Shown piece after piece: positions 5,118 through 33,494 of a DNA stretch of 33,700 nt. The translations under genes were made by a program, and so were the position numbers. The notes under the pieces were generated by a model, which did not search any database, had not been told where the DNA came from, and saw nothing but the letters and a program-made list of their open reading frames with translations. Source of the stretch: Acidobacteriota bacterium (GTDB taxonomy: Bacteria; Acidobacteriota; Blastocatellia; RBC074); contig JAGNMH010000001.1 in assembly GCA_017991275.1 (NCBI GenBank), positions 1-33,700 on the forward strand. Reading direction: 5' to 3'. How positions within the stretch are numbered: the stretch's first letter is position 1; each line of letters begins with the position of its first letter.

Positions 5118-5135
5118 GGGGACAAACTTGAACAC

Positions 5136-12836: not shown

Positions 12837-12892
12837 GAATCAATTCTCCGGTTAGGGAGTCAGCACCGTGAGTGGCACTAACTCAATGAGTC

Positions 12893-14861: not shown

Positions 14862-14871
14862 CAAAAAGCCT

Positions 14872-14935: not shown

Positions 14936-14956
14936 GAACTTTTAGGAGCGTACTCA

Positions 14957-17014: not shown

Positions 17015-17038
17015 GTGAAAATCTGAAGCCAAGAGACC

Positions 17039-17076
17039 AAAAAGCCCGCGAACCTTCTGATTCGCGGGCTTTTTTT
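17039..17076. terminator. Bidirectional intrinsic terminator between convergent genes
   Basis: AAAAA, then stem GCCCGCGAA (17044-17052), an 8-nt loop, stem TTCGCGGGC (17061-17069), then TTTTTTT. This is a classic A-tract/stem/T-tract architecture. Confidence 0.85.
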
Positions 17077-17100
17077 CATCCACAGCATTTTTATTGTCTA

Positions 17101-18216
17101 TTAGTTGCCCGGTGGCTTTTCGCCTTGCTTGCGAAGCGTCGGGCGGTCTTTTGTTTCAGGCTCACTGCTTGCGCCGCCGGAACTGGCGTCACTATTTTCG
17201 CCAGGAGCGCCGGGCTGGCGACGTTTCAAAGTCGGGCGCTTGCTGTCGGCTTCAGTAGCACCGCCACGACCGCCTGTCGAACGAGCATTGGTAATAGAGA
17301 TCAAACGATTTTTGACTTGCTGGAATTCTGAAGTATTGATTGTGTACTCGCTGCGCTCAGGGAACCGCGCGATCAGAGAATTCACTTTTTCAATACGATC
17401 GCCAACCACCGGATGCGTGCTGAAAATTTTGTTGATCGTGCCTGGCTTTTTCTTTTCCTGTGCTTGCAGTTTTTCAAAGAAGCTCGCCATTGAACGCGGA
17501 TCGTAACCAGTAGCCCACAGATACTGCACTCCCAACATATCGGCCTCGTATTCGGCATTGCGGCTGAATTTCAGAAAGCCGACAGGGATGAAGATACTGG
17601 CCGCCTGCCGAGCGCCAAAACCTCCCCACCCACCAAGAAAGATCAACGGCAAAGTACTCCAATTGACCAGCTCGCCCTTTGAGGCCTGCTCGACTCCGTG
17701 ACGAGCGGCAACGTGTGCGATTTCGTGAGCCATCGGCCCAGCCAATTCAGATTCGTTATCAGCCGCCAGAATCAATCCTTTATTAACGTAAAAGAACCCG
17801 CCGGGCAAAGCAAAAGCATTGACTTCATCGGCGTCAACCACTTTGATCGTAAAAGGAACTTTTGCATCTGAATGAAGCACCAGATTCTGGCCAACTTTGT
17901 TGATGTATTCGACGATGATCGGGTCTTCAACCAATTTGGCAGAACGATCCACTTCCTGAGCGAACTGGCGGCCAACACCGACTTCCTTGTCTATCGAATA
18001 AAAATTTATTTGGTGTTTGTTGATGTTTCGCTTGCCAATCAGTTCAGGGTTTTCCTGTTCTTCAAGAGGGGCGGTTTTTGCAGCAGCCTGCTTATCAGAT
18101 GAGGTGGATGGTTTCTGGGAATCGTTTTGAGCAAAAGCCGGTGTGGCGAGCAAAAGAAAGCTCAGTGCAATTCCAACCCGCCTGCAACTTGAGAGCGATT
18201 TTTCCGATAAACTCAT
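17101..18216 (-). CDS. Exported M48-family zinc metalloprotease (BepA/YfgC-like catalytic domain) with disordered C-terminal tail
   Basis: HEIAHVAARH (HExxH) and a downstream NAEYEADMLG third-ligand context. It has a signal peptide (IALSFLLLATPAFA) and AAGGAG 8 nt upstream. The tail is Gly/Ser/Pro-rich and contains KRPTLKR and DRPTLRK. Confidence 0.9.
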   Translation of the reverse strand: MSLSEKSLSSCRRVGIALSFLLLATPAFAQNDSQKPSTSSDKQAAAKTAPLEEQENPELIGKRNINKHQINFYSIDKEVGVGRQFAQEVDRSAKLVEDPIIVEYINKVGQNLVLHSDAKVPFTIKVVDADEVNAFALPGGFFYVNKGLILAADNESELAGPMAHEIAHVAARHGVEQASKGELVNWSTLPLIFLGGWGGFGARQAASIFIPVGFLKFSRNAEYEADMLGVQYLWATGYDPRSMASFFEKLQAQEKKKPGTINKIFSTHPVVGDRIEKVNSLIARFPERSEYTINTSEFQQVKNRLISITNARSTGGRGGATEADSKRPTLKRRQPGAPGENSDASSGGASSEPETKDRPTLRKQGEKPPGN

Positions 18217-18520
18217 TTCTAAATCTCCTTACCGAAATCTTTTTGAAATTCAATTGCCTGACTTTTCATTGGCACAGGCAATTCTGTTAATCATAAATAG
18301 ACGAGCAGTCAAAATGGCTGTATTCAACGTATTGGAACTGTTCCACTATGAAGTGATGGCATTATACTCGGCGTTAATAATTCATGCCGCAACTTTGTAA
18401 TTAATCTTCTCTCAGCCCTTTGCGTTAGTTAGCTTTAAGCCGAAAGGCCAGTAGACTATCGGCGATACTTCAAGCCTTCCTTATAGCGTTTTTCATTTGA
18501 GTGCGACCTGTACATTAAGA

Positions 18521-18549
18521 GGTGGAACAGGCTCTGAACCTGTTCCACC
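18521..18549 (-). terminator. Hairpin about 40 nt downstream of the PQQ-like gene pair
   Basis: A perfect 11-bp stem, GGTGGAACAGG (18521-18531) with CCTGTTCCACC (18539-18549), encloses a 7-nt loop. There is no clear U-tract. Confidence 0.5.
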
Positions 18550-18590
18550 AAATCAAGAAGTCGCACGCACCTGCAAATAGCTATAATGGC

Positions 18591-20243
18591 TCAATGCTCC
18601 ATTGGATAGCCGAAAGCGTAAATCGTGCCGTCGTGTGTTGTCAGATAAAGCTGCCCTATCCCGCCCGACAACGCGCCGCCATGCGCAAAAGACGTGATCG
18701 TTGTTCCGCTGTTCCACAACTCTTTGCCAGTTGCGCCATCCAGCGCGTAAAGCACAGCTTTGCCGGAACGAGCAGCCCGCATTGTCGCTGTCACCTTGCT
18801 GTCATTTGTCAGGAACTCACCGCTGGAAGTTGCAAAGACCACGCCGTTGATGGCCGTTGGCGTCAATGGAGAAACCAGATTGCGCGAAGCCCAACCTGGC
18901 GTCAGCGAAAGTTTGCCGTTTGTCTCAACCAGTTTCCAAGCCAAAATTGCGCCTTTGGTCACTGCCGTTCCTGTAAATCCGGCGGGCAATGCACCAATGT
19001 GCGCGGCCAGAACCCAGCGCGTTCCATTGGCGTCCTGGTAACTCGCCAACGAACCCGGCGCTGAGTCTTTGCCCGCCGCCGCTGTCGTCGCAACCGCTGT
19101 CGAAAGATTTGCAACGTCCAGCAAATGTACGCTGCCATCTTTGGTTGCAGCGGCAATCAGCGTTTTGCCGCTGAATTGAAACACCACCGGCGTCGAAGAA
19201 AATTCCTGACCCGCAGCAGTGTATGAACCTTTGACTTCCAGAGTTTTCGGCGCAAGCGCGGTGACGCCCTTTGTCGTGGTGACATAAACCGTGCCGTCTC
19301 CGCCAAAGGCTGCTCCCGCTGAGCCGACGATTTCACCTTTCCAGGTGGCTACCTTTTGAGATTCAAAATCATAGGCGTAAAGGCCATTCGCAACTCCACC
19401 GCAACTTCCTGAAGTTGCGGCGTAGGCTGCGCCGTCAACAATAATCAATCCGCTGGCATTCGCTCCGGGCGGCAGGAATTTGATTGGCTCCTGATACGCC
19501 GCGCCATTCGACAAGTGCATGCCATGCAACATGCCATCGCTGGCAAGCGCGAAAACTACGCTTACGCCGCCAAACCCTGCACCGATGGGAGGAGCGCTTG
19601 GGCGATTTGCGCCACCGGGGCGTTGCTGTTGTTGCGGCGTCGCCGCCTGTGTAGCAGGCGCTGGTCCCGTCGGCCTCGGTGGCAGTGCAGCTAAATTCGC
19701 TGCGCCTGCGCCAGGTTCGCCAACAGTGCTTTTTCCTGGATTGCTGCGACCAGGCCCAGACCCGCCTCCGGCAGCAATCATGGAAGTTGCTGGACGGACG
19801 ACTCCGGTGGTCATTCCGCCGGGACAAGCCAGAGTGCCGGGAGTTGGCGAAGGCGTAACCTTTAACTTTTTCTCCCACTCCATACGGCCTAAGTCAGTGT
19901 CAATCGTAAACAAGTTGTCATCGCTACCAGCGATAAAACCCAACATACGAAAGCCTTTATAACCAATCAGCCTTTCCAGCGTGGCCGGAGGCGTCAGGCT
20001 GTTCAATTGTCGCGGCTGGTTTTTCAGCTTCACTTTCCACAGGAATTGAAAGCTCTTTGGATTGGTCACCGAGTCTTTGTTGATCTTGCCGTCGGTTTTA
20101 ATCGTTGCCGTGCGCTGAGCGTCGGCGTTTTCGGTCATCCAATCATTGTTGCCGCCGCGTTGCGCTTGCGCGGTGACGACGCAGGTAAGACAGAAAATCC
20201 CGGACAAAATTCCAGACGAAATTATTGTTTTCATTCGCTTCAT
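18591..20243 (-). CDS. Secreted PQQ-like (BamB/quinoprotein-type) beta-propeller repeat protein with Pro/Ala/Gly/Gln-rich insertion
   Basis: Signal peptide, and propeller repeat signatures such as NLFTIDTDLGRMEWEKKL and AVLYALDGATGKELWNSG...DGTIYAFG. It is a paralog of the upstream gene. Its start abuts the upstream stop (TAAATG). Confidence 0.85.
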   Translation of the reverse strand: MKRMKTIISSGILSGIFCLTCVVTAQAQRGGNNDWMTENADAQRTATIKTDGKINKDSVTNPKSFQFLWKVKLKNQPRQLNSLTPPATLERLIGYKGFRMLGFIAGSDDNLFTIDTDLGRMEWEKKLKVTPSPTPGTLACPGGMTTGVVRPATSMIAAGGGSGPGRSNPGKSTVGEPGAGAANLAALPPRPTGPAPATQAATPQQQQRPGGANRPSAPPIGAGFGGVSVVFALASDGMLHGMHLSNGAAYQEPIKFLPPGANASGLIIVDGAAYAATSGSCGGVANGLYAYDFESQKVATWKGEIVGSAGAAFGGDGTVYVTTTKGVTALAPKTLEVKGSYTAAGQEFSSTPVVFQFSGKTLIAAATKDGSVHLLDVANLSTAVATTAAAGKDSAPGSLASYQDANGTRWVLAAHIGALPAGFTGTAVTKGAILAWKLVETNGKLSLTPGWASRNLVSPLTPTAINGVVFATSSGEFLTNDSKVTATMRAARSGKAVLYALDGATGKELWNSGTTITSFAHGGALSGGIGQLYLTTHDGTIYAFGYPMEH

Positions 20244-21890
20244 TTATTTGGCTCCTTTCGACGCCGACTGCGCCGCTCCGTTCGCAATTCCAAAGCAATA
20301 CTGATAGCCATCAAAAGTGCTGATGTAGACGCGACCATTGGCGACAGACAACCCACTCCAATGATTCCACGAAGCGATGGCGTCGCCGCTGCTCCAAAGC
20401 TCTTTGCCGGTTTGCGCGTCCAACGCGTACAGCACGGCTTTGGTGGAATTTTTAATACGGTTTTCCTGACGGTTATAAGATAACCCTATGTCGAACGCGG
20501 CCTGATCGGTGTCTTCGCCGCTGCCATAACTAAAGACAACGCCATTAGCGATGATCGGCGGTTCGCCGCGATCCATATCGCGCGAAATCCACGCCGGTGT
20601 CAGCGTAGGTTTGCCCGCTTTGTCATCAGTGACTTTGAAAGCCACGACGCCGCCTTTTTTGACAACGCCGTTTTCAATCGGAGCTTTGAATTTGGAATGC
20701 TTCGGCCCCCAGAACGGCGACAAAACCCAGCGCGTGCCTTTGCTGTCTTCCCACGTCGCCAGCGATCCCCAGACGCCCGCCGAAGCGAAATTGACTTCTT
20801 CGTTGCAATACAGCGGCGTACGATGCAGCGGCGTGCGATGATCGTCGCCGCCGATGGAATCCAAATCCATCAGATACATCACGCATTCCTTGCCAGCATC
20901 CACCATCAATTCTTGGCCTTTGTATTTGAAGATTGAAGCGGTGACCTGCATATCCAAATCGCGTTTCCACAACCATTCGGCGTTTGAGGGGCCGTAATAA
21001 TCCACCAACTTTCCGGCTTTGGTCACGGGGTCTTGAGCAACGCCGATAATGCCGTTGCCGTAAATACCATTTTCAGGATTCCACGGGCCGTCACCTGTTC
21101 CGGTGTACATCACGCCTTTCGAGCTGATTGCGCCGCCAGTGCGTCCCCACATTCCGCCGCCTGCAGGCCCCCAGGCTCCAACGCGATCCGTGGCCAGATC
21201 GTAAATGTAAACCATGTTCGGGTTGCCGCCGCAGCCTTGCGCTGTGTGAACGTAAATCGCGTTCTTGTACATGTTCAGCGCGTAAGGTTTGCCGTTCGGC
21301 GGCATGAATTTCGAGGCTGGGGCTATTTCTTTGCCGGTCGCCAAATCCACCCGGCGCAATCGCCCATCCCACGAAGCCGCATACACGATATATTCGCCCG
21401 CCGCTTTGCCAGGCGCGATGATTGGTGTTGCGGTGATGCCTCCTGGGCACAAAATTCCTGCGCCTCGCCCACCTGAGGCTGGCGGCGTCCAGTCGCTTTC
21501 AAAATGCAGCTTCCAAAGCAGCGCACCTGATTCGGCATCCAACGCATAAAGATTGTCCGTTACGCCCGTCACCAAAACGACCTGTTTCAATCCGTTCAAA
21601 GTTTTGACATTGCTGGCAATCAGAGCTGGCAGCAAGTTGTGCATCTGGCGCGGTTCATTGTCGAGCTTTGTTTTCCACAGCAGCTTCATGTTTTTGACGC
21701 TGGTGGGTGAAAGAATGTGTTCGTTCTTTTGCCAGCCGGTGCGTTCAACGTCGCCGCCGTCCATCAGCCATTCTGCTGGCCGGTCAGCCGGTTTGCCGCT
21801 TTGCGCCTGTGGGTTCAGGCTCAAATCAGCCAAACAGGCCAACAACAAAAGAGCGAGTCCGAAAACTCTAAAACTTATTCGATATTCCAC
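20244..21890 (-). CDS. Secreted PQQ-like beta-propeller repeat protein
   Basis: GTG start at 21890 with AAGGAG 8 nt upstream, and a signal peptide ([18 protein letters not shown]). Repeat signatures include [18 protein letters not shown] and [18 protein letters not shown]...DGYQYCFG. Confidence 0.88.
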
Positions 21891-21968
21891 GGGTAAGACT
21901 CCTTATTGTGAACAGGTATTTTTTTTAGGGAAAGCCAGGACTTCTCACTTCGTCGGACTGGGTTTCGA

Positions 21969-23417
21969 TCATGCCAACAATTTGTCCACGACCATTCCAT
22001 GCACATCCGTCAGGCGAAAATCACGGCCTTGATAACGATAAGTCAGTTTCGTGTGATCGAAACCCAACAGTTGTAACAAGGTCGCGTGCAGGTCATGCAC
22101 GTGAACAGGGTCTTCGGCAACGTTGAAACCGAACTCGTCGGACTTGCCTAACGTCAAGCCAGGTTTGAAACCTCCGCCGGCTACGAACAGCGAGAAAGCT
22201 TTATTGTGGTGGTCACGTCCCAGGCTGCGATTGGCGTCGGGGTCAGATTCGACCATTGGCGTCCGTCCAAATTCCCCGCCCCAAATGATTATGGTGTCGT
22301 CCAACAATCCGCGTTGCTTCAAATCCAGGATCAACGCCGTTGTCGCCCGATCAATCAGCTTCATTTGTTTGCGCACCCCCTTTACCACTTCGGAATGATG
22401 ATCCCAGGCCTCGTGGTTAAGTTGGACGAAACGCACTCCGCGTTCGATCAAACGACGCGCCAGCAAACAGTTGTTGGCATAAGATGCCTTGCCTTCTTCA
22501 GCGCCATAAAGCTCCAGAGTCTCTTCCGATTCCTTTGAAAAATCCATTAACTCCGGCCCGCTTTCCTGCATACGAAAAGCCATTTCAAAGGCGTTGATGC
22601 GCGTGGCGGTCTCAGCATCACCGGTTACGCCCAGGTGCTCTTCGTTTAATTGTTTCAGTGTATCCAATGAACGGCGTTGCATATCGCGCGTTATGCCTCG
22701 CGGATTCTTCAACGACAAAATAGGCGGGCCAGTGCGTTGAAACGGCACTCCCTGATAAAGCGTGGGCAGAAAACCCGCCCCCCAATTGGCTGAGCCGCCG
22801 CTGGTTCCGCCGCCCGACGAAAGCACGACATAAGCTGGCAGATTTTCGGTCTCGCTTCCTAATCCATACGTCACCCACGAACCAAAGCTGGGACGCCCGA
22901 ACTGAATCGAACCGGTTTGCATAAATACCTGCCCTGGTGCGTGGTTGATCGCGTCGGTCATCATCGAACGAATGATGGTAATGTCGTCGGCAACTTTTGG
23001 CAGATGCGTCCAGGCGTCGGAAAGCTCTGCGCCGGATTTCCCGTGTTTGGCGAATTTGAACTCCGAGGCATAAAGCCCTGCATCCGGGCGAATGAAGGCG
23101 TAGTTTATGCCTTTGGTAAATTCCTTAGGCACTGGCTGGCCGTTGTACTTCGCCAGACTGGGTTTGTAATCGAACAGGTCAAGTTGCGACGGGCCGCCAG
23201 AATGAAACAGGTAAATTACACGCTTGGCCTTTGCCGCAAAGTGGGGACGTTTCGGAGCCAATGGGTTATTCGATTGCGGGTTGCCATCGGCAATCGCCTT
23301 ATTATTCAGCAAAGATACCAAGGCCATTGACCCAAGTCCGACGCCGCATTCTTTGAAAAACCATCGCCGTGAATAATGTTTTTGTAGCTCTCGTCCAATC
23401 TCTTCGTTGTAATTCAT
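21969..23417 (-). CDS. TAT-exported DUF1501-family protein (alkaline-phosphatase/sulfatase-like fold)
   Basis: Twin-arginine signal [18 protein letters not shown]. Family-typical motifs are [26 protein letters not shown] and GRDHH. I chose the ATG at 23417, preceded by AGGAGAG. The ORF-track start at 23435 is a TTG. Confidence 0.9.
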
Positions 23418-23469
23418 CGTCAACTCTCCTATCAAAATTGCCTTTAATCCGTAACCAAAGCGTCTGCAA

Positions 23470-26400
23470 TTATTCCTTCGTCAGCGTTTCATCCAGATTC
23501 AACAAAACACGAGCGACCATCGCCCAAGGCGCGATTTTTTGCAGATCAATGTCTTCCGGCAGCTCGCTCAAATCCGAACTGGAAACGTAAACTGCCGCCG
23601 CTGTGCGCCCCTTGAAGATTGGTCGCTGATCGGCCAGCAACTTCATCAATGCCTTTAATTCGGATTTGGTAGGTTTACGCCCTGTGCATAGACGAAAACC
23701 GTAAATCATCTTTTCTTTATCGCTTGAGCCGCCTTCTTTCCACATACGCAAACCTAATCCCTGCGCAAATTCGACAAATGTCTGGTCATTGAGAGTGGTC
23801 AGCGCCTGAAGCGGAGTGTTTGAACGTAACCGCCGAGTACAGGAAAAATCACCAATGGGTTGATCAAAAACCAGCATCGAAGGATAAGGCACGTTGCGTT
23901 TCCAGAATGTGTACATCCCGCGACGATAACGGTCTTCGCCCTTGCTGGTAGGCCATGGCATGGCGCTGCCATAGCCAAGACTAAGCACTCCATCTGGAAT
24001 TGGCGGATACACGCTTGGGCCGCCAATTTTGTGGCTAAGCAATCCACTGACTGCCAGCGCGATGTCGCGTATGGTTTCGGATTCCACGCGCAGGCGAGGC
24101 GCGCGAGCCAATAATGAATTAGTGGGGTCTTTTTCCTTCAACTGCGGAGTGACATTTGACGATTGCCGATAAACAGCAGAATTCGCAATCAGCCGATGCA
24201 AATGTTTGAAGCTGCCTCCGCTGTCCATAAATTCCACAGCCAGCCAATCCAGCAGCTTCAAATTCGGAGGTTCGTCACAGCGCATGCCGAAATCTTCGGG
24301 CGTCGAAACCAGGCCTTCGCCGAAATACTGTTGCCACACTCGATTGACTATGACTCGCGCTGTCAGCGGATTCTTTCTGTCAGTGATCCATTGCGCCAAG
24401 CCCAGCCGATTGAGCGGCGCGTCATTCGGAAAAGGGTGCATCAACGCCGGTGTACCGGGGGTCACAGATTCGCCAGGGCGTTTCCAGTCTCCACGACGAA
24501 ATAAATTGGTTTCGCGCGGCCATTGGCGCTGAGCCAGCGTCAATGTCGTCGTTCCGTAAGGCCAATCGCTCAACAAGTCATCAATCTTTTTGTTGGTATC
24601 GCCCCAATCGGCAACTGTCGTGCGATAAAAACTGAAGACTTCGTGTTGCTGCTGCTCTGTTCGTTCGGCAACCGGGATTGCCAAAATGCTGCGCACGTTG
24701 GAAGGCAGCGGGTCGGCATACGGGTTGGCCGCCGTTGTCACAGACAAACGGAAACGCCCAATGTTTGGCTGCGGCGTACGAATCTCTTCGTTGAATCTTT
24801 GAATCAACTGGAATGACAGAGTCGTTCCTCCGTCAACACCGACAGGTTGCGCAGCAGCAAAGACCATCTTGCGATCCTGGTTACGGCTGACTGGGCCGGC
24901 ATCGCTGAACCAGTGAGTTTTCTGGTTGCCATCAATTACATTTTTAATCGGAAAATCCGAGCGTTCATAATCAACCGTCGGATTTTGCAGAGTGATACGT
25001 GTCTGTTTTTCAGGCGCAGAAGCCGGCGCAGCGTCAATCATCAATTCTGAAACGTAAAACTTGCCATCAAAATCCCGCCCCGGCCCGGTGCGTGGCAGGT
25101 TAGGGCTGGTCAGAAATTCCACTCGGAAACCTGTAATGTTTTTAAGCGTAGTGCGCGCTTTGATTTGATAATTGTTCCCGGTCGCATTGTCTCCGCGCGC
25201 CAGAAAAGAACCATCGGGCAACTTCTCAAACTTGACTCCGTAAATGGCGTGGATATCCGTATCCATCAACGGCGCCCACTGGCTTTCGTCGTAAGCCATC
25301 TTCTTTTCCCACTCGGCGATCCGGTCTTTTAAGTCAGGCGTGGCAGCGACCAATTCATTTTCCAGCTTGGAGATGTCTGCTTGGATAAGTTGACGTTTGG
25401 TTGTGATTTTTGCGTCGGGGACTTCCATTTCCGGTTCGTCATCGGAATTCAGGAAGGCGTAAAACTGGTAATACTCTGTTTGCTTGATTGGGTCGAATTT
25501 GTGGTTGTGGCATTGCGCGCATTTAATTGTCAGTCCCAAAAACGCATTGCCTATGGCGTCCACGCGGTCAATCAACCCTTCGACACGGAACTGTTCAGGA
25601 TCAACTCCACCTTCCTGATTGAGCATTGAATTGCGCAAAAAACCTGTGGCGACCCGCTGTTGTAAAGTTGAATGAGGGAGCAAGTCCCCGGCCAGTTGTT
25701 CAATTGTGAACTTATCGAATTTCTTGTCTTCGTTGAAGGCTTTGATCACCCAGTCACGATAAGACCAGATTGAACGCGGCAGGTCTTTTTCAAATCCATT
25801 GGTGTCGGCATAACGCGCAGCGTCCAACCACCAACGCCCCCAGCGTTCGCCGTAATGCTTGCTTGCCAGCAGCCTGTCAATCTGCTTTTCCCAGGCATCG
25901 GGCGAATTGTCAGCCAGAAACTCGTCAATCTCTTTTAGCGTAGGTGGCAAGCCGGTCAAATCCAGGCTCAGGCGGCGAAGCAATGCTTCTTTTGAAGCTT
26001 CGGGCGAAGTGGTCAAACCGCGTTTTTCGATTTCCGTCAGTATGAAGCGATCTATGGGCGTCCGCGACCAGGTCGTATTTTTCACTTCAGGTAAAGCCGG
26101 GCGAACCGGCGCGACAAAAGCCCAGTGCTGCGGAGCTTCGTTCGCCCCGTTGCCTTGTGCAGTCTCGTCCGACCATGCGGCCCCTTCATCAATCCAGCGT
26201 TTGATCAGCGCGACTTGCTCCGATGTCAGCGCAGTTCCGCCCAGCGGCATGCGCTGCTCACCACCCTCCCCAAGAATACGATGAATCAGGCGCGAATCTT
26301 TGCTTGAGCCAGGCTTAATGACCGCACCGGAAAGCCCCCCCTTCATCGCCAACGCCTTTACATCAAGTTTCAACTGGCCAGAGGCTTTGGCTCCGCCGTG

Positions 26401-26556
26401 GCATTTGTAACAACTCGCAGCAAAGATGGGTTGAATATCACGAGCAAAGTCCACCTTTGCCTGTGACCAGAAAGAACGAGCAGATATCCCTGCCAAGGGT
26501 AGCAACAACACACTACAAGCAAGCAGGAGCAGAATTTTTAGCAAACGCGGCTTCAT
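23470..26556 (-). CDS. Exported multidomain protein: cytochrome c (PSCyt1-like) + DUF1549 (PSCyt2) + beta-sandwich insert + DUF1553 (PSD1)
   Basis: Signal peptide and an N-terminal heme motif CYKCH (26398-26412). A DUF1549-like block reads LDLTGLPPT...[24 protein letters not shown] second CxxCH, CAQCH, lies at 25507-25521. There is a central discoidin-like [14 protein letters not shown] segment, and the C-terminal part is DUF1553-like ([18 protein letters not shown]...). Confidence 0.9.
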
Positions 26557-26562
26557 ATTATT

Positions 26563-26638
26563 CAGACTCTATTTGGCCAGACAGACCCCATTTGGCCAGA
26601 CAGACTCTATTTGGCCAGACAGACCCTATTTGGATTGG
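26563..26638 (-). repeat. Tandem direct repeat, 19-nt unit x4, immediately upstream of the PSCyt gene start codon
   Basis: The plus-strand units are CAGACTCTATTTGGCCAGA (26563-26581), CAGACCCCATTTGGCCAGA (26582-26600), CAGACTCTATTTGGCCAGA (26601-26619) and the degenerate CAGACCCTATTTGGATTGG (26620-26638). The array ends 6 nt from the ATG at 26556. Confidence 0.9.
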
Positions 26639-26665
26639 AATTGTTGTTCGTTGTAATCGCAGAAA

Positions 26666-26716
26666 ATTGCGGGCGAATAATTGCATAAGTAATTCGATTT
26701 CACCATTCGCCGCAAT
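26666..26716 (-). terminator. Hairpin starting at the NHL gene stop codon (terminator candidate)
   Basis: ATTGCGGGCGAAT (26666-26678) pairs with ATTCGCCGCAAT (26705-26716), with one bulged base. On the minus strand the stem is followed by TTTTCTGCG. Confidence 0.5.
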
Positions 26717-27813
26717 CATTCCTTTTGTGAATTCAAAATTCGAACTCGGTGCGCTTCGCTGTCTCCAATAAAAATCTTGCCGTTCTTATCCACAAACACT
26801 CCATGCGGACGAGCCAGCGCGCAGGCCAACGGATCGCCATCCGAACCGTTTCCCTTCTGGCCGGTTCCGGCGACCAATTCTATGGTCATTTTTTTTAGAT
26901 CAATCATCCGAATGGAATGGCTTTCGGTGTCGGCCAGATAAACGTTTCCGTTCGGAGCTATGCTCAACCCTTTCGGCCCGGACAATGCAGCCAGCCTCGC
27001 CGGGCCACCGTTGCCCGTGAAGCCTTGCTTGCCGGTTCCGGCGATATGGTGAATTGTCCCGGCTTTCAAATCCAGTTTGTAAACAGCATTTCCTTCTCGC
27101 AAAGCCAGCCAAAGATTTCCTTGCCCGTCGAAGTCAATCGCGCGTGGGCCGTTCAAAGGCGTTCCGGCGATCTTGGCTCCGTCCGGCGTAGCTTTCTTTT
27201 CGCCTGTTCCGGCAAAAGTCGTGATTCCCCCATTCTTCATATCAACCTTGCGAATGCGATGGTTGAGTATGTCGCAGATGTACAAATCACCTTTGTTGTC
27301 GAATTGAATGCTGTGAGGTTGATTCATCTCGGCTTTGGTCGCCGCTCCGCCATCGCCGGAAAAACCAGACTGGCCAGTTCCGGCAATCGTCGTGATGATT
27401 TGAGTCCGACGATCCACCCGGCGAACAACGTGGTTCATTCGCTCGACGACGAACAGGTTGCCGTTTCGGTCAAAGCGCACTTCGTAAGGTTCGTTCAACT
27501 CGGCTTTTGTCGCCGCTCCGCCGTCGCCGGAATAACCTTTCCTGCCCGAACCGGCGACAGTCGTGATCACGCCTTTGCTATCAATGCGACGAACGGCGTG
27601 ATTCATTGTGTCGCAAAAATAGATGGCGTTATCCGGGCCGACGACTACACCAAACGGATTGTTCAACTCAGCATTTGAAGCTTGACCGCCATCGCCCGAA
27701 TATCCGGCCTGACCGGTTCCCGCAATGCTTCTGATTTGAGTTTTCGGCGACTGACCGGCTATGCCGATGACAACCGTGAACAACATCAACGCGATACATC
27801 CGAATCTTTTCAC
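26716..27813 (-). CDS. Secreted six-bladed NHL-repeat beta-propeller protein
   Basis: Six consecutive repeats of about 50 aa follow the pattern G(Y/F)SGDGG.A..A.LN.P..v..d..Gn.y..D..NH..R..d. I chose the GTG at 27813, preceded by GGGAGA, which gives the signal peptide VKRFGCIALMLFTVVIGIAG. The ORF-track ATG at 27891 adds 26 residues before the signal peptide and has no RBS. Confidence 0.85.
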   Translation of the reverse strand: MKRFGCIALMLFTVVIGIAGQSPKTQIRSIAGTGQAGYSGDGGQASNAELNNPFGVVVGPDNAIYFCDTMNHAVRRIDSKGVITTVAGSGRKGYSGDGGAATKAELNEPYEVRFDRNGNLFVVERMNHVVRRVDRRTQIITTIAGTGQSGFSGDGGAATKAEMNQPHSIQFDNKGDLYICDILNHRIRKVDMKNGGITTFAGTGEKKATPDGAKIAGTPLNGPRAIDFDGQGNLWLALREGNAVYKLDLKAGTIHHIAGTGKQGFTGNGGPARLAALSGPKGLSIAPNGNVYLADTESHSIRMIDLKKMTIELVAGTGQKGNGSDGDPLACALARPHGVFVDKNGKIFIGDSEAHRVRILNSQKE

Positions 27814-27927
27814 GCTTTGTTTTCTCCCTGGACAAGATTGGTTTGACCACATTGGAAGGCTGCCATAAGATGCGCGCCATCCGCAACACATCTGAAGTAG
27901 TTCAACATTTCAACCGGAGAAAAGATC

Positions 27928-30186
27928 ATGATCGGCAGCAAAAATTTCAAAGTCGCGCTGTTGATTCTCGCGCTAACCTGCGCGGGTTGGGCGGTTTCCG
28001 ACGAACGAAAGTTCAGCGAAGACGAAAAGAATTATTGGGCCTTCCAACCTGTTCGCAAACCTGCTGCGCCCGCAGTTAATCAGGGCGCCTGGGTAAAAAC
28101 CCCAGTTGATGCTTTTATCCTGAAAGAACTGGAAGCCAAACAAATTGCACCAGGTGCGGCTGCCGACAAAGTTACTCTGATTCGCCGAGCAACCTTTGAC
28201 CTGACCGGCTTGCCGCCGACACCTGAAGAAGTCGCCGCCTTTGTCGCCGACCGGTCGTCAAAAGCCTTTGAAAAAGTCGTTGACCGCCTGCTCGCTTCGC
28301 CGCATTACGGCGAAAAGTGGGCGCGGCATTGGCTTGATCTGGCTCGATACGCCGACAGCGATGGCTTCAAAGCCGACGACACTCGCCCAAACATCTGGCG
28401 TTACCGCGATTACGTCATCAAATCCTTCAACGCCGACAAACCTTACAACCGATTCGTCAAAGAACAACTTGCCGGAGACGAACTTTGGCCGGAAGACCCT
28501 GAAGCAGTGGTGGCAACCGGTTTCAACCGCCACTTCCCCGACGAATACAACGCTCGTAATTTATTGCAACGGCGGCAGGAAATTCTGAACGACATCACCG
28601 ACACCACGGGCGCGGTGTTTATGGGAATGACTTATGGCTGCGCACGATGCCACGATCACAAATTCGATCCGATTCTGCACAAAGACTATTACAAGCTTCA
28701 GGCATTTTTTGCCGGTTCACGAGCCAAAGACGATTACGTGTTGGCTTCGAAAACCCAGCAAGCCGAATACAATCGCCAACGCGCCAACTGGGAATCGCAG
28801 ACCAAAGACTTGCGCGAACAAATGACCCAACTGGAAGCGCCCGCCCTGAAATCGCTTTATGACGACGGTTTTGAAAAGTTCACTGAAGACGTCAAAGACG
28901 CCATCAACACCGAACCGGAAAAGCGCAGTTCGATGCAGTGGTTGATGTACCACAAAGCTCAGTGGCAATTACATTACGGAGTTGACGAAGACGGCAACGG
29001 CATCGGCCAAAAGCTGAAAGGCGAACAGAAAAAAGAGTGGGAGGCGTTAAGAAAACAACTCGCTGCCTTCGATTCCATCAAGCCTAAGCCGTTGCCAATC
29101 GGCTCCGGCCTGACTGATGTTGGCCGTGAGGCCCCCGCAACTCACATTTTGAAAGTCGGCGCTTATGACGTTCCCCTGGCCGAAGTGCAGCCGGGCTTTC
29201 TAACAATCATTGACCGCCAACCGGCGAAGATTCTGCCAACTGCAAATCCGAATTCAACAGGCCGACGTGCTGCGCTGGCCGCCTGGCTGACCGATCCGAA
29301 AAATCCGCTGACCGCTCGTGTCATGGCCAATCGGATATGGCATTACCACTTTGGCCGTGGCCTGGTGGCCACCCCCAGCGACTTTGGCTTTGCAGGAGAA
29401 ACCGACGGTAATCTGGAACTGCTGGACTGGCTGTCCAGCACATTTGTCGAGCAAGGCTGGAGCATCAAGAAAATGCACCGGACGATTATGCTGTCCAGCG
29501 TTTACCAACAAAGCTCCGCGTTCAATGAATCCGCCGCCAAAGTTGATCCTGACAACAAACTGCTCTGGAGATTCCGCCGCCAGCGACTGACCGGCGAAGA
29601 AGTCCGCGATGCCGTGCTGGCCGTCAGCGGGCAACTTAATCGGCAAATGTTCGGCACTCCCGTCTTTCCTGAAATACCGGCTGGTTTGGACATCCGCGGT
29701 GGGTGGAAAAAGGGCGAAAGCGAAGAAGCCAAAAATCGCCGCAGCATTTATGTTTTTGTCCGTCGCAACTCGCGCTATCCGATGTTCGCGGCTTTCGATA
29801 TGCCTGACACTCACGAAAGTTGCGCCCGCCGTTCTGTAACCACGACCGCGCCGCAAGCATTGTCTTTGCTTAACGACAATATGATTTTACGCGCCGCTCG
29901 AAACTTTGCTGGGCGAGTGCTGACCGATTGCCAGAACGACGTAAATGCTCAAATCAATGCGGCTTACCGGTTGGCGTTTTCGCGCGAACCCGATGCCGCC
30001 GAACGAAAACTGGCCGTCGAGTTTCTGCGAAAACAAACGGCGCTGGTCAAATCACCGACGAATCAAAAGAACTCCGCTGAGTTCACTGCCAAACTGTCGT
30101 CAACAATTGATCCGGCTCACGTCGCAGCCTTTACCGATTTCTGCCACGTGCTGCTCAACTCAAACGAATTCGTTTACGTCAACTAG
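27928..30186 (+). CDS. Exported DUF1549 (PSCyt2) + DUF1553 (PSD1) protein lacking the N-terminal cytochrome c domain
   Basis: GGAGA RBS and a signal peptide. Family blocks include [12 protein letters not shown]...HYGEKWARHWLDLARYADSDGFK, the CxxCH motif CARCH (28639-28653) and NPLTARVMANRIWHYHFG. It is a shorter paralog of the 1028-aa protein. Confidence 0.9.
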   Translation: MIGSKNFKVALLILALTCAGWAVSDERKFSEDEKNYWAFQPVRKPAAPAVNQGAWVKTPVDAFILKELEAKQIAPGAAADKVTLIRRATFDLTGLPPTPEEVAAFVADRSSKAFEKVVDRLLASPHYGEKWARHWLDLARYADSDGFKADDTRPNIWRYRDYVIKSFNADKPYNRFVKEQLAGDELWPEDPEAVVATGFNRHFPDEYNARNLLQRRQEILNDITDTTGAVFMGMTYGCARCHDHKFDPILHKDYYKLQAFFAGSRAKDDYVLASKTQQAEYNRQRANWESQTKDLREQMTQLEAPALKSLYDDGFEKFTEDVKDAINTEPEKRSSMQWLMYHKAQWQLHYGVDEDGNGIGQKLKGEQKKEWEALRKQLAAFDSIKPKPLPIGSGLTDVGREAPATHILKVGAYDVPLAEVQPGFLTIIDRQPAKILPTANPNSTGRRAALAAWLTDPKNPLTARVMANRIWHYHFGRGLVATPSDFGFAGETDGNLELLDWLSSTFVEQGWSIKKMHRTIMLSSVYQQSSAFNESAAKVDPDNKLLWRFRRQRLTGEEVRDAVLAVSGQLNRQMFGTPVFPEIPAGLDIRGGWKKGESEEAKNRRSIYVFVRRNSRYPMFAAFDMPDTHESCARRSVTTTAPQALSLLNDNMILRAARNFAGRVLTDCQNDVNAQINAAYRLAFSREPDAAERKLAVEFLRKQTALVKSPTNQKNSAEFTAKLSSTIDPAHVAAFTDFCHVLLNSNEFVYVN

Positions 30187-30196
30187 AGGTGTCGAG

Positions 30197-31645
30197 ATGA
30201 AGCGATCAAACCGGGAAACTTTATCTGCTGAAACCAGCGCGTTAATTAATCGCCGTAATTTCCTTTCACAATCCGGCGCGGGGTTGTCTTCGTTGGCGCT
30301 GACTTCGATGTTGGCCGAAGACGGATTTGCTTTCGGCGAACAAAAACCACTTGACCCACTGACCCCCAAAAAGCCGCATCACACGCCAAAGGCGAAGTCA
30401 GTCATCTTTCTGTTTATGGAAGGCGGCGTCAGCCACATTGACACCTTTGACCCGAAACCGGCGCTGGATAAACTGGCGGGCAAGCCGATGCCGGAATCTT
30501 TTGGTCGTCCGGTGACAGCAATGGGGACGGCTTCAAACACGATTATGCCCAGCCGCCGCACCTGGAAAAATTATGGTCAGAGCGGCATTCCAGTTTCCGA
30601 CTGGTTCCCCAACGTAGCCGAACACGTGGACGATCTGGCGATAATTCGATCCTGTTGGGCTGACGGATTGAATCATGTTGGTTCGGTTTGTCAGATGAAC
30701 ACCGGTTCGATTCTGGCCGGACGGCCTTCGCTCGGAGCCTGGGCGACTTACGGACTTGGGACTTCGAATCAGAATCTGCCTAGCTTTGTCGTCATGGCCG
30801 ACGACAAAGAAGTTCTGGGAGGCCCGAAAAACTGGAGCGCAGGTTTTCTGCCAGCGGTTTATCAAGGCACTCAGTTCCGCACAGGTGATGCGCCCATCTT
30901 CCATCTGAAAACGCCAGACAGCATCAGCGAAGCTCAGCAACGCGGCAAACTGGATTTTCTGGCGCAACTTAACGAACGGTTTTCAGCAGACAAAGCGGAC
31001 GATAACGAATTGCTGGCCAGACTGAATTCTTACGAACTGGCCTATCGAATGCAGTCCGCCGCTCCAGAAGCCGTTGACCTGACCAAAGAATCCGAGGCAA
31101 CAAAAAAGTTGTATGGAATTGATAATCCAGCAACTGCCAAATTCGGCACAATGAGCTTGCTGGCCAGGCGATTGGTCGAACGCAACGTCAGATTCGTGCA
31201 GTTGTATTCCGGTTCCGGCAGTGCCTGGGACGCTCACAACAACCTGGAAGGCAATCACACAAAGATGTGCCTGAGCGTGGACAAACCAATTGCCGGTTTG
31301 CTGGCCGACCTGAAAGCGACTGGCTTGCTGGATACGACGCTGGTCGTTTGGGGAGGCGAATTTGGCCGCACTCCGTTCAACGAAAAAGGCGATGGCCGAG
31401 ATCACAATCCTTGGGGATTCACGATGTGGATGGCTGGCGCTGGAATCAAAGGCGGCCAGATCATCGGTGTGACTGATGAAATAGGTTTGAAGGCGATTGA
31501 AAAACGCGCTCATGTTCACGACCTGCACGCGACGATCATGCACTTGATGGGGTTGAACCACCTGAAGACGACTTACTTTCACAACGGTCGCAACGAACGC
31601 GCGACAATCAACGACGGCGCAGTGATACGCGAACTTGTTTCGTAA
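30197..31645 (+). CDS. TAT-exported DUF1501-family protein (second copy)
   Basis: The ATG at 30197 lies 10 nt after the upstream stop, with GAGG upstream. The twin-arginine signal is INRRNFLSQSGAGLSSLAL. Family motifs are [25 protein letters not shown] and GRDHN. The ORF-track start at 29945 would overlap the upstream gene. Confidence 0.9.
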   Translation: MKRSNRETLSAETSALINRRNFLSQSGAGLSSLALTSMLAEDGFAFGEQKPLDPLTPKKPHHTPKAKSVIFLFMEGGVSHIDTFDPKPALDKLAGKPMPESFGRPVTAMGTASNTIMPSRRTWKNYGQSGIPVSDWFPNVAEHVDDLAIIRSCWADGLNHVGSVCQMNTGSILAGRPSLGAWATYGLGTSNQNLPSFVVMADDKEVLGGPKNWSAGFLPAVYQGTQFRTGDAPIFHLKTPDSISEAQQRGKLDFLAQLNERFSADKADDNELLARLNSYELAYRMQSAAPEAVDLTKESEATKKLYGIDNPATAKFGTMSLLARRLVERNVRFVQLYSGSGSAWDAHNNLEGNHTKMCLSVDKPIAGLLADLKATGLLDTTLVVWGGEFGRTPFNEKGDGRDHNPWGFTMWMAGAGIKGGQIIGVTDEIGLKAIEKRAHVHDLHATIMHLMGLNHLKTTYFHNGRNERATINDGAVIRELVS

Positions 31646-31650
31646 CTAAC

Positions 31651-31754
31651 AATGCCATTAACCATTAGCCATTGACCATTAAGCATTATCGGTCAGGGTA
31701 CAAAAGGCTTCCCCTATCGGTTAATGGGTAATGGCGAATGGGCAATGGTTAATT
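31651..31754. repeat. Heptad-phased inverted repeat (CCATT x5 left arm, AATGG x4-5 right arm)
   Basis: CCATT/GCATT cores start at 31655, 31662, 31669, 31676 and 31683. AATGG cores start at 31723, 31730, 31737 and 31744, with a degenerate one at 31751. The arms pair at the cores (9+5+5+5 bp) with 2-nt mismatched spacers. A TATCGGT direct repeat lies at 31687 and 31715. Confidence 0.8.
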
Positions 31755-31767: not shown

Positions 31768-32445
31768 ATGAAAGAGACAAAAGAGCAGCTTAAAACCCGC
31801 ACTCAACAAATCATCCGCGCTTTGAAAAAAGCCTACCCCGAAGCCGAATGCGCTCTGAATCACTCCAATCCATTCGAGCTTTTGGTTGCCACAATCCTGT
31901 CGGCTCAATGCACAGACGAGCGAGTCAACATCGTCACTTCAACACTTTTCAGAAAGTACCTAAGCGTCGCCGACTTTGCCTCCGCTGATCCGGCTGAACT
32001 TGAGAAGGACATCAGCTCAGTCAATTTCTTCCGCAACAAAGCCAAGTCCATCCAAACGACTGCCAAGCTGTTGCTGGAAAAACATAACGGCGAATTGCCT
32101 CAGACGTTGGAAGAACTGACGCAGCTTGCCGGAGTTGGCCGCAAAACAGCCAACGTTGTTTTGGGCACGGCTTTCGGAATTCCAACCGGAGTGGTCGTGG
32201 ACACTCACGTTTCGCGGCTGACTCAATTGCTTGGGCTGACGAAAAACAAAGACGCGGTAAAGATCGAACAAGATTTGATTGAATTGGTGCCGAAGAAAGA
32301 ATGGATTGATTTTTCGCACCGGCTGATCTGGCACGGTCGCCGAGTCTGCAAAGCTCGCAAACCGAATTGCGCCGAATGCTCGCTGGAATCGCTTTGCCCG
32401 TCTTCTTTGCTGAAATCGGCTACTGACAAAAAGAAGACAAGATAA
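31768..32445 (+). CDS. nth: Endonuclease III (DNA-(apurinic or apyrimidinic site) lyase / thymine glycol glycosylase)
   Basis: HhH-GPD motif LTQLAGVGRKTANVVLG with the catalytic Lys, and an Asp in VVDTHV. The C-terminal 4Fe-4S loop is C-x6-C-x2-C-x5-C (CKARKPNCAECSLESLC). Confidence 0.95.
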   Translation: MKETKEQLKTRTQQIIRALKKAYPEAECALNHSNPFELLVATILSAQCTDERVNIVTSTLFRKYLSVADFASADPAELEKDISSVNFFRNKAKSIQTTAKLLLEKHNGELPQTLEELTQLAGVGRKTANVVLGTAFGIPTGVVVDTHVSRLTQLLGLTKNKDAVKIEQDLIELVPKKEWIDFSHRLIWHGRRVCKARKPNCAECSLESLCPSSLLKSATDKKKTR

Positions 32446-32498
32446 CGGAACAGACGGAAATCTCCGTTTCTTCCGTTATTTCCGTCTGTTCCGTTATC
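32441..32498. terminator. 21-bp perfect inverted repeat between convergent nth and cupin genes (bidirectional terminator candidate)
   Basis: GATAACGGAACAGACGGAAAT (32441-32461) pairs with ATTTCCGTCTGTTCCGTTATC (32478-32498) around a 16-nt loop. The element is built from ACGGAA/TTCCGT units and overlaps the nth stop codon. Confidence 0.65.
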
Positions 32499-32513
32499 TC
32501 TCCAACCATTCAC

Positions 32514-33494
32514 TCAAAGGGAACTGGCCTGCAACAGGTCAGCTGGCAAACTCACTTCCAACAACTCAAGTCCCGCGCCTGGCTCTAACGAAAAATCCAA
32601 GCCAGCAGGAACCACGCAACTGTCACCAGACAACAATTGATGCTTCCCTTCTTCGCGGCTAACAAAGCCAAGCTCTCCATTCAGCACAAACAGAAACAGA
32701 AATTCGCCTTCGTGCCGTTGCTTGCTGGCTGACGCCTTTGCCACAAACCGATGAACTCGTGCCGAAGCCAACCCATTCGTAGCCGCCGCGATTCCCGTGT
32801 CGCGTTTTTCGCAACCGGCAATCGGTGAAGCCGTCCAGTTGGCTTCGCTGGCGATGTGACGAACGAATCGCTGACCGCCGAAAAGCCGTTCTGGCAAAAC
32901 TCGCCCGGTTGGAAGCTGCAATTGGTGTTCGACAAAAGTTTCGTGAACCGCTGGGCTGCCGATTTCTATCACTTCCAAGCCCGGCGAAGACTCCAGCACT
33001 CGATGGCGAATCTCCGGCGGCTGCAACACGCAGTCTCCAGGATGAAGCACGAACGGTTCGCCCTGATCCTCGTAAACCACGCGCACCCATCCAGCTTTGC
33101 AGTAAATCATCTGAAAGCGAACTTTGTGGAAATGAACGTAATCCGGCACTTCTCCGCCGCCGGGAATGCGAATGTGCGAAGCGATAAAGCGCCCACTCAA
33201 TCTGCCTGGAATCAAATCGCGGTATTCCATCCCGGCTCGCCCAATGTGCCATGCGTCGGCGGAACTCGCCCGGCTGATGACCAATCCTTTGGCATCGTTC
33301 GCCAACTCGCCATCTGTTTGGGTGGAATCCAACCGCAAAGTGACGCCGTGACCGGACACCACGGCTGCACGCGGAGCATCCGCCGGAACAATCATCTCCA
33401 ATCGGAAGCCCAGACGGTCAGTAAAAAACTCTATCGCCTCAGTCAGATCAGGACATGGCAACGCGATTAAACTGGTTTGTTTATCAATGCTCAT
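32514..33494 (-). CDS. VOC/glyoxalase-like N-terminal domain fused to a bicupin
   Basis: The N-terminal LPCPDLTEAIEFFTDRLGFRLEMIV resembles a VOC fold. Two cupin-like barrels follow (GGEVPDYVHFHKVRFQMIYCKAGWVRVVYE...PPEIRHRVLE and HEGEFLFLFVLNGELGFV). The substrate is unknown. Confidence 0.8.
   Translation of the reverse strand: MSIDKQTSLIALPCPDLTEAIEFFTDRLGFRLEMIVPADAPRAAVVSGHGVTLRLDSTQTDGELANDAKGLVISRASSADAWHIGRAGMEYRDLIPGRLSGRFIASHIRIPGGGEVPDYVHFHKVRFQMIYCKAGWVRVVYEDQGEPFVLHPGDCVLQPPEIRHRVLESSPGLEVIEIGSPAVHETFVEHQLQLPTGRVLPERLFGGQRFVRHIASEANWTASPIAGCEKRDTGIAAATNGLASARVHRFVAKASASKQRHEGEFLFLFVLNGELGFVSREEGKHQLLSGDSCVVPAGLDFSLEPGAGLELLEVSLPADLLQASSL

Follow-up and report, generated by a model that had tools for sequence, protein, structure and literature searches.

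To our knowledge, pairs of a PSCyt/PSD1 protein and a DUF1501 protein belong to the most expanded gene families whose function is not known in Planctomycetes, Verrucomicrobia, and some Acidobacteria, and we know of no activity that has been assigned to them since their description in 2004–2012. Genomes of the Planctomycetes-Verrucomicrobia-Chlamydiae (PVC) group carry tens to hundreds of copies of this family. Two such pairs are encoded in a window of 33,700 nt, i.e., the whole stretch of DNA that was analyzed, which stems from a metagenome-assembled genome (MAG) contig of a soil member of the Blastocatellia (Acidobacteriota). They lie in a 13-kb region together with three beta-propeller genes, one of the NHL type and two resembling pyrroloquinoline quinone (PQQ) propellers.

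The closest described systems come from two genome surveys. Kamneva et al. (2012; PMC3542564) described exactly this module, a DUF1501 protein, often with a twin-arginine signal, beside a protein with PSCyt1, PSCyt2, and PSD1 domains, sometimes with carbohydrate-binding domains. The occurrence is given as mainly Planctomycetes, Verrucomicrobia, and Lentisphaerae, with 'a few' Acidobacteria, and electron transport at the membrane or in the periplasm with a cofactor-bearing enzyme was proposed, but no function was assigned. He et al. (2017; PMC5615132) described the families in freshwater Verrucomicrobia, with fusions to carbohydrate-binding modules (CBMs) and sulfatase genes as neighbors, and also assigned no function. 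The initial annotation of the window had presented the locus as a candidate uncharacterized extracytoplasmic system. The module is not newly recognized, as both the pair and the reasoning from twin-arginine translocation (Tat) signals and cytochrome motifs are already contained in Kamneva et al. (2012), and the core idea of that annotation restates a published hypothesis.

The pairs of the window are similar to the described module in several respects. The same Pfam families are adjacent and co-oriented (gaps of 52 and 10 nt), the DUF1501 protein carries a Tat signal, a signal peptide and CxxCH motifs are found in the large protein, and a carbohydrate-binding-type insert is optional. The differences are the occurrence in Blastocatellia and the gene context. 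One pair is part of a trio with the NHL gene, and the other lies in a block with the two PQQ-like genes; neither association is included among the architectures in the cited passages of Kamneva et al. (2012). Modestly new are the conservation of the trio with NHL, the independence of the PQQ-like module, which has partners of its own, and the insertion or deletion of the block.

We interpret the 13-kb region as three independently conserved periplasmic modules that lie side by side, each pair being an instance of the PSCyt/PSD1 and DUF1501 unit, and assign a probability of about 0.6 to this reading. The modular anatomy taken by itself is very probable. The gene coordinates are based on a list of open reading frames (ORFs) with translations and on an inspection of start codons and ribosome-binding sites. 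The seven genes are as follows:

18591–20243, minus strand: PQQb, module 3; 550 amino acids, Sec-type N-terminus, paralogue of PQQa with a Pro/Gly-rich insert
20244–21890, minus strand: PQQa, module 3; 548 amino acids, GTG start, Sec-type N-terminus, PQQ-like beta-propeller
21969–23417, minus strand: DUF1501_A, module 2; ATG start at 23417 after GGAGAG, Tat signal
23470–26556, minus strand: BigA, module 2; large protein of 1028 amino acids, Sec-type N-terminus
26716–27813, minus strand: NHL, module 1; propeller of 365 amino acids, Sec-type N-terminus
27928–30186, plus strand: BigB, module 1; large protein of 752 amino acids, Sec-type N-terminus
30197–31645, plus strand: DUF1501_B, module 1; ATG start at 30197 after GAGG, Tat signal

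The intergenic gaps are 0, 78, 52, 159, 114, and 10 nt in the order from PQQb to DUF1501_B, and the start codon of PQQb abuts the stop codon of PQQa. Thus, the seven ORFs, their order, and the gaps that had been claimed were reproduced exactly. The mechanical ORF of NHL extends to 27891, but the likely start is the GTG codon at 27813, which is preceded by GGGAGA. The public record of the contig lists BigA with 994 amino acids (P0122), with a start that is 34 codons too late and a loss of the signal peptide; the form with 1028 amino acids is backed by homologues of 1028–1033 amino acids. Exact matching of PQQa, BigA, and P0122 yielded no recorded contig.

Export signals had been proposed for all seven products, and two Tat signals and five Sec-type N-termini were indeed recognized by eye. 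The Tat motifs read from the sequence are SRRWFFK in DUF1501_A (23352–23372) and NRRNFLS in DUF1501_B (30248–30268), and the residues R17, R18, and F20 are invariant in 35 DUF1501 homologues. The Sec-type N-terminus of BigB reads MIGSKNFKVALLILALTCAGWA; those of BigA, PQQa, PQQb, and NHL were assigned in the same way.

The three modules assort independently

The context of the NHL gene was surveyed by looking up eight homologues. Among the 120 best matches listed, NHL homologues are 69–92% identical where an identity is given. A BigB orthologue (750–754 amino acids, 66–87% identical) lies divergently beside NHL in seven of the eight cases, and a DUF1501_B orthologue follows BigB in six of them, at times with one gene in between. 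NHL-BigB adjacency was found in 10 of 11 other genomes (L001, L003, L159–L165, and L168; L numbers denote related loci), and in L168, a 3-keto-disaccharide hydrolase gene lies between the two genes. DUF1501_B orthologues with identities of 74–93% follow BigB in eight genomes (L001, L003, and L159–L164). In the eleventh genome, L167, a remnant of 38 N-terminal amino acids of BigB (6698–6811, 50% identical) is present beside the NHL orthologue and the BigB/DUF1501 pair is lost; therefore, NHL can persist without the pair. The neighbors on the far side of NHL vary in almost every genome (M48, GH39, VWA, SDR, GT4, and Fic). The repeated adjacency together with the variable far side shows that NHL and the divergent genes for BigB and DUF1501_B form a conserved trio. 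NHL had been grouped with the minus-strand genes, but it belongs to the divergent pair with the 752-residue protein and not to the four co-oriented genes downstream. The related proposal that propellers accompany the pairs was borne out for NHL, which is a conserved neighbor of this pair, but not for the PQQ-like propellers.

The NHL protein scored 81 bits with NHL (PF01436; cut-off 20) and 114 bits with TEN_NHL (PF25021; cut-off 27), and weaker Pfam matches were obtained with SGL and Vgb_lyase. In these repeat scores, it resembles the six-bladed propellers of the NHL/SMP-30-gluconolactonase-LRE (SGL)/Vgb-lyase families. It differs from them by its unusual conservation and its fixed position beside a PSCyt2-PSD1 gene, and it reaches no curated equivalog in NCBIfam (ScyF 79 bits versus 350; Vgb 17 bits versus 600).

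PQQa and PQQb, which are about 30% identical to one another, were used as an alignment to scan metagenomes, and 79 loci with identities of 63–84% were obtained. In 47 of them, PQQa has another propeller gene as its neighbor. Other recurrent neighbors encode a GDSL-like esterase (41/79), a CSQCH protein of about 170 amino acids that is read as a small cytochrome c and has HHH_3 as its sole Pfam match (32/79), and an outer-membrane beta-barrel of about 1200 amino acids with a CarboxypepD_reg domain (21/79). Gfo/Idh/MocA oxidoreductases and 3-keto-disaccharide hydrolases also recur at these loci. Any DUF1501 or PSCyt gene was found nearby in just 2 of the 79 loci, and among the 45 loci whose upstream flank extends over at least 3 kb, not one has a BigA-DUF1501 pair of the type found in the window ahead of PQQa; a BigA/BigB-like fragment is present in L137. 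Because they have recurrent partners of their own and DUF1501 or PSCyt neighbors in only 2 of 79 loci, PQQa and PQQb are an independent acidobacterial module and not general accessories of DUF1501 pairs, as had been proposed. Annotation should be corrected accordingly: the PQQ-like propellers are to be labeled as a separate acidobacterial module. None of the three partners, barrel, small cytochrome c, and GDSL esterase, is encoded in the window.

Among acidobacteria, a cluster of genes for the barrel (CarboxypepD_reg and OMP_b-brl_4), a PQQa-like protein, a PQQb-like protein, the CSQCH/HHH_3 protein, and the GDSL esterase is widely conserved (L080–L158, e.g., L084 6096–14627; also L008 14557–19212). 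This cluster appears to be an uncharacterized periplasmic system of its own.

The label 'PQQ-like' could be upheld at the level of the repeats, for which weak PQQ_2 matches were found (42.7 and 29.7 bits; cut-off 27.6), but not beyond. PF01011 was matched by PQQa only, with 30.4 bits over 135 of 595 model positions, and TIGR04528 of NCBIfam, the 'acido-empty-quinoprotein group A', yielded 30 bits versus a cut-off of 650. Both proteins share several features with this group and with quinoprotein dehydrogenases: they are exported beta-propellers of about 550 amino acids, the N-terminal W..DGGD..RTGW matches PF01011 and TIGR04528, and a gene for a small cytochrome c lies after PQQa/b in other genomes, as is the case for quinoprotein dehydrogenases. 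In contrast, they remain far under the respective cut-offs, and PQQb has the long Pro/Gly-rich insert. A comparison of PQQa and PQQb with PDB sequences revealed repeat-level matches and no close relative. Membership among the PQQ-dependent dehydrogenases (PF01011/TIGR04528) was rejected, as the matches are partial and below cut-off and no PDB quinoprotein was matched significantly. An identity as BamB (TIGR03300) was rejected as well, with a score of 28 bits versus a cut-off of 285, a size of about 550 instead of about 390 amino acids, and no lipobox.

Relatives of BigA were collected from one genome per species, which resulted in 79 loci with identities of 33–97% in Acidobacteriota, Planctomycetota, and Verrucomicrobiota. 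Of the 68 evaluable loci, 37 have the DUF1501 gene directly after the large gene and 48 have it at a distance of up to 6 kb, in agreement with the claim that the two genes recur as neighbors. Among public loci, L003 is the closest, with a BigA identity of 97%. Among the 79 loci, the PQQa-PQQb tandem is present only in L003 and in L008/L027 and L037 (BigA 73–76% identical), and NHL with BigB and DUF1501_B only in L001 and L003. The pairs in L002, L004, and L005 (BigA 76–83% identical) occur without propellers; in L002 and L004, the ORF after DUF1501 has a SecA-like N-terminus as read by eye. No third gene family recurs around BigA-type pairs in 89 loci.

Modules 2 and 3 lie together on a segment that was delimited by its presence or absence in relatives:

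18416–26715, no strand assigned: 8.3-kb block with BigA, DUF1501_A, PQQa, PQQb, and the spacers

The block is present in the window, in L003, and in L166, the last being a third near-identical copy of the full arrangement. It is missing in L159 and L160, the NHL proteins of which are 83–86% identical, and NHL is directly followed by the M48 gene. The gene order in these two loci is (cupin-)EndoIII-DUF1501_B-BigB, then divergently NHL-M48(-Abhydrolase_10), with the same flanking genes as in the window; the cupin gene was seen in L160 and Abhydrolase_10 in L159. Positions 18217–18415 of the window align with nearly the whole NHL-M48 spacer of L159 (score 151), and the NHL-BigA spacer does not align with it. 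Because the spacer on the M48 side is retained and the NHL-BigA spacer cannot be aligned, the region of about 18416–26715 is present or absent as a unit, from the NHL stop codon onward. The block was thus inserted here, or deleted from close relatives, directly after the NHL stop codon. The four-gene block is also found in another setting, namely in L008/L027 and L037, where it lies after a GH78 rhamnosidase gene and before the small cytochrome c gene and a GDSL gene. Taken together, the three modules were shown to assort independently.

No mobile-element signature of the block was found when junction repeats, tRNA genes, Rfam families, and GC content were examined. The best direct repeat or target-site duplication at the block ends has 12 nt and is no better than in shuffled sequences, and the whole window contains no tRNA gene and no Rfam family. 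The GC contents of the block, the trio, and the window are closely similar (0.529, 0.532, and 0.516, respectively), and thus, a compositional shift is also missing.

The conservation of the block in two settings raises the question of a lineage-specific operon of four genes, in which the PQQ-like propellers would oxidize a substrate and pass the electrons to PSCyt1 of BigA, a domain that would take the place of the small cytochrome c normally encoded after PQQb. We regard this as possible, but of rather low probability. The block is intact in the window, L003, and L166 and in L008, L027, and L037 although BigA is 73–76% and PQQb 53–56% identical, its gaps are short, and a strong hairpin is found only after PQQb. 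In addition, the block of the window lacks the small cytochrome c gene (present at 32 other PQQ loci) and the GDSL gene (41 loci), and BigA has a PSCyt1 domain. However, L008 and L037 contain both the PSCyt1 domain of BigA and the small cytochrome c, and therefore, a replacement is not required. Furthermore, the closest relatives of PQQa (80–84% identical; L080 and L084) have the outer-membrane barrel upstream instead of the pair, the closest relatives of BigA outside of the species (L002 and L004) lack propellers, and the TIGR04528 score and the lack of a close PDB relative give no support to a PQQ or redox role of the propellers.

Domains of the paired proteins and a proposed mechanism

The domains of the two large proteins are listed here, with Pfam matches as the basis unless stated otherwise:

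23638–24411, minus strand: PSD1 of BigA, amino acids 716–973
24736–25263, minus strand: CBM-like beta-sandwich of BigA, amino acids ~432–607, predicted from an AlphaFold2 (AF2) model and Foldseek
25444–26058, minus strand: PSCyt2 of BigA, amino acids 167–371, with CAQCH at residue 346 (25507–25521)
26245–26412, minus strand: PSCyt1 of BigA, amino acids 49–104, with CYKCH at residue 49
Plus strand, amino acids 59–264 of BigB: PSCyt2, with CARCH at amino acids 238–242 (28639–28653)
Plus strand, amino acids 446–700 of BigB: PSD1

The families that had been named from the sequence, PSCyt1, PSCyt2, PSD1, DUF1501, and NHL, were all recovered in Pfam by hidden Markov model searches. DUF1501 (PF07394) scored 508 bits in DUF1501_A and 501 bits in DUF1501_B versus a cut-off of 27, covering model positions 1–390 of 390. 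PSCyt2/DUF1549 (PF07583) scored 294 bits in both BigA and BigB, and PSD1/DUF1553 (PF07587) 308 and 311 bits, respectively (cut-off 28.5). PSCyt1 (PF07635) was found in BigA only, with 48.5 bits versus a cut-off of 22; BigB has no such domain. The CxxCH motifs that had been reported were confirmed, i.e., CYKCH and CAQCH in BigA and CARCH in BigB. The longer PSCyt2 motif CxxCHxHK[FY]DP is present in 75 of the 79 related loci, in three phyla. In PSCyt1 of BigA, M103-P104 is conserved in at least 90%, and a PDB sequence search with the N-terminus yielded a weak match to cytochrome c6.

BigA and BigB are 36–43% identical and the two DUF1501 proteins 42%, which agrees with the claim of two diverged versions; to judge from these identities, the two pairs are diverged paralogues. 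In comparison with the BigB-type architecture, BigA has acquired a class-I cytochrome c domain at its N-terminus and a beta-sandwich of the CBM type. The AF2 model of BigA (predicted local distance difference test, pLDDT, 72.8) comprises a cytochrome-c-like N-domain, a helical PSCyt2, a long helix, the beta-sandwich, and a helical PSD1. With Foldseek, the modeled sandwich was matched to CBM29, CBM32, CBM35, and CBM61 with probabilities of 0.9–1.0 and TMt values of 0.40–0.47. In contrast to these likenesses, the E-values are 0.02–0.2, the identities 6–11%, and no Pfam CBM model is matched. A scan of the BigA insert and the PSD1 region at E ≤ 10 yielded no further Pfam family, no CBM model, and no DUF1800, the family of the widespread DUF1800/DUF1501 pairs. 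The whole BigA model found no match in the PDB at E ≤ 1e-3 with Foldseek, and thus, no analogue for the helical parts.

The alkaline-phosphatase-like fold that had been proposed for DUF1501 received support from a model of DUF1501_A (pLDDT 63.6, predicted template modeling score 0.72). All 30 Foldseek matches at E ≤ 1e-3 belong to the alkaline-phosphatase superfamily, with E-values of about 1e-4 and template modeling (TM) scores of about 0.3; they include PDB 3lxq, LtaS, YejM/PbgA, arylsulfatases, and the TAB5 alkaline phosphatase. A PDB sequence search with DUF1501 yielded no match with E < 0.2, and identities were at most 13%. The alignment of 55 DUF1501 sequences (42–98% identity) revealed the conserved polar residues S/T77, D83, K85, N158, H159, D339, H341, E382, D402, and H403, which are located directly after predicted core strands. 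A strict invariance of S77, seen in close homologues, had to be dropped, as the wider alignment has Ser or Thr at this position in 53 of 55 sequences.

The DUF1501 model appears to share with the alkaline-phosphatase superfamily the core alpha/beta fold, the Ser/Thr after strand 1, and Asp/His after later strands. In addition, the DUF1501 segment 'L..GLLddT.vvw.G' aligns with the segment ahead of the metal-binding DH motif of sulfatases and LtaS. In contrast to the superfamily, DUF1501 proteins are typically exported by Tat, and the matched structures have no counterpart of the obligate large partner. The C/S-x-P-x-R formylglycine motif of sulfatases is missing. Accordingly, membership among the S1 sulfatases was rejected: neither DUF1501 copy contains [CS]x[PA]xR, and no Pfam Sulfatase match was obtained. 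The predicted subunit with the alkaline-phosphatase fold keeps the Ser/Thr and a D/H/E cluster, yet it lacks the sulfatase motif, and we infer that DUF1501 holds an intact but atypical metal-dependent active site.

We tentatively propose the following mechanism for the pairs, well aware that it may not hold. Each pair would be a periplasmic two-protein unit of a Sec-exported, mostly helical large subunit and a Tat-exported DUF1501 protein. The CxxCHxHK[FY]DP site of the large subunit may bind heme c or a metal, and the glycan-binding-type module of BigA would recruit the substrate. DUF1501 would be a metalloenzyme of the alkaline-phosphatase superfamily with a Ser/Thr nucleophile and would act on carbohydrate-derived periplasmic substrates, where a phospho- or sulfo-ester-type group would be cleaved or transferred. 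Three observations point to carbohydrates: the insert of the CBM type in BigA, the fusions to CBMs in the literature, and the sugar-oxidation genes that recur around the trio and the PQQ pair (Gfo/Idh/MocA, 3-keto-disaccharide hydrolase, KDPG aldolase/DGOK, GH39, and GH78).

Several points weigh against the three-module reading and the mechanism attached to it. Concerning the modules, the tight gaps of the block (52, 78, and 0 nt) and its maintenance in two contexts at 73–76% identity allow for a functional connection of modules 2 and 3 that is particular to this lineage. At the NHL stop codon, insertion and deletion both fit. Concerning the large proteins, the CxxCH motif is the evidence that they may bind heme, and the PSCyt2 loop with this motif was modeled in BigA with a pLDDT below 50. 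Concerning DUF1501, the confidence of the model and the TM score of the fold matches are low. Furthermore, strand 1 does not end in a conserved Asp, the canonical metal ligand at this position, and 'EF' aligns with the canonical 'DH' of LtaS and sulfatases in weak profile alignments (E 0.3–1). The missing Asp and the replacement of 'DH' by 'EF' make the predicted active site of DUF1501 atypical, and its chemistry could be other than ester hydrolysis. Finally, no functional study of DUF1501, DUF1549, DUF1553, DUF1800, or PSCyt was found in the literature searched.

These deviations from active sulfatases and LtaS are also compatible with a pair that is neither redox-active nor hydrolytic. CxxCHxH would then be a Cys2His2-type metal or disulfide site, and DUF1501 would be non-catalytic or at least no hydrolase, with a role in envelope biogenesis or ligand binding. 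The largely non-catalytic YejM/PbgA is indeed among the best structural matches of DUF1501, C346, C349, H350, and H352 of BigA could jointly bind a metal, and no known cytochrome is analogous to the helical domains. However, the Tat signal is conserved and is typical of exported proteins with cofactors, many polar residues are strictly invariant over three phyla at positions of the active site of the alkaline-phosphatase fold, and BigA contains, in addition, a cytochrome c domain of the standard class-I type, including CxxCH and the conserved Met-Pro. We therefore regard a non-catalytic pair as unlikely.

Very improbable is the proposal of the initial annotation that the seven genes are a single extracytoplasmic system in which two hydrolase/heme pairs use three propellers as substrate-binding or scaffold subunits: all seven products have export signals, the five minus-strand genes are spaced by 0–159 nt, and the full arrangement is seen again in L003 and L166 and, at least in part, in L001, but these recurrences are near-identical relatives (BigA 86–97%), the trio and its flanks are retained in L159 and L160 without the other four genes, L002, L004, and L005 have the pair without propellers, neither a DUF1501 nor a PSCyt gene lies near PQQa in 77 of the 79 loci, and BigA-type loci have no recurrent third partner.

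Within the three-module reading, a further-reaching view can be taken of the trio of NHL, BigB, and DUF1501_B, which is 66–93% identical across Blastocatellia. It might be a dedicated, vertically conserved periplasmic machine in which a structurally novel helical protein, with heme or a metal bound at its invariant CxxCHxHK[FY]DP site, activates, or is redox-coupled to, an atypical enzyme with the alkaline-phosphatase fold, and the propeller would be a third subunit or a lactonase-type partner in oxidative glycan breakdown. This view is speculative and doubtful; if true, it would be the first functional foothold on this protein family that is expanded in PVC bacteria. The window does not solve the function of the PSCyt/PSD1 and DUF1501 pairs. 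Nevertheless, the trio is a single-copy-like, highly conserved version in which NHL is a fixed partner and a promoter-like element is conserved among the relatives examined, and it could be a cleaner target than the swarms of paralogues in PVC genomes.

Candidate regulatory elements and surrounding genes

Three elements in the spacers of the region were of interest:

18501–18566, minus strand: nested GC-rich hairpin with stems of 13 bp and 9 bp, directly after the PQQb stop codon, no U-tract
26563–26633, no strand assigned: tandem repeat of 19 nt, consensus CAGACCCTATTTGGCCAGA, 3.7 copies, Tandem Repeats Finder score 121, directly upstream of the BigA start
27843–27871, plus strand: sigma-70-like promoter TTGACC-17-TAAGAT, predicted by a consensus scan, directed toward BigB

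The promoter-like element has counterparts in other genomes. TTGACx-N17-TAAGA(A)T was recognized by eye in L162 and L163 between NHL and BigB, and the sequence block around the element is conserved in L001, L003, L159, and L160 and looks similar in L161 and L164. The scans of the window revealed 4 promoter sites versus 9.2 in shuffled sequence, i.e., fewer, and 21 terminator sites versus 22.6, i.e., no more than in shuffled sequence.

The hairpin after PQQb has a predicted free energy (dG) of −36.7 kcal/mol (z = −3.8), and none of 200 shuffled sequences folded equally well. It is probably the terminator of the BigA to PQQb unit, and its strength is compatible with one transcription unit from BigA to PQQb. 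The 19-nt repeat gave three matches versus 0 expected by chance and is not present in the corresponding spacers in L001 and L003; it may have arisen by local expansion and may influence the expression of BigA.

The flanks of the region (200–18216 and 31768–33494) encode an HtrA-like protease with PDZ, a TPR protein, a succinate dehydrogenase/fumarate reductase flavoprotein, two M16 peptidases, a CpsB/CapC phosphatase, two alpha/beta hydrolases, an M48 peptidase, endonuclease III, and a bicupin. These seem to be ordinary housekeeping or envelope genes; many of them code for exported proteases or hydrolases, and a tie to the pairs is not evident.

In L003, the NHL/BigB spacer (5152–6003) holds a duplication of about 800 bp of the BigB 5′ region that contains an N, and this is probably an artifact of the MAG assembly. 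In the spacer of the window from the stop codon of DUF1501_B to the gene for endonuclease III, (CCATTAA)n and (TAATGGG)n heptamers form a long hairpin (31653–31754; dG −41.9 kcal/mol, z = −4.0), which could be a terminator or an element similar to repetitive extragenic palindromic (REP) sequences.

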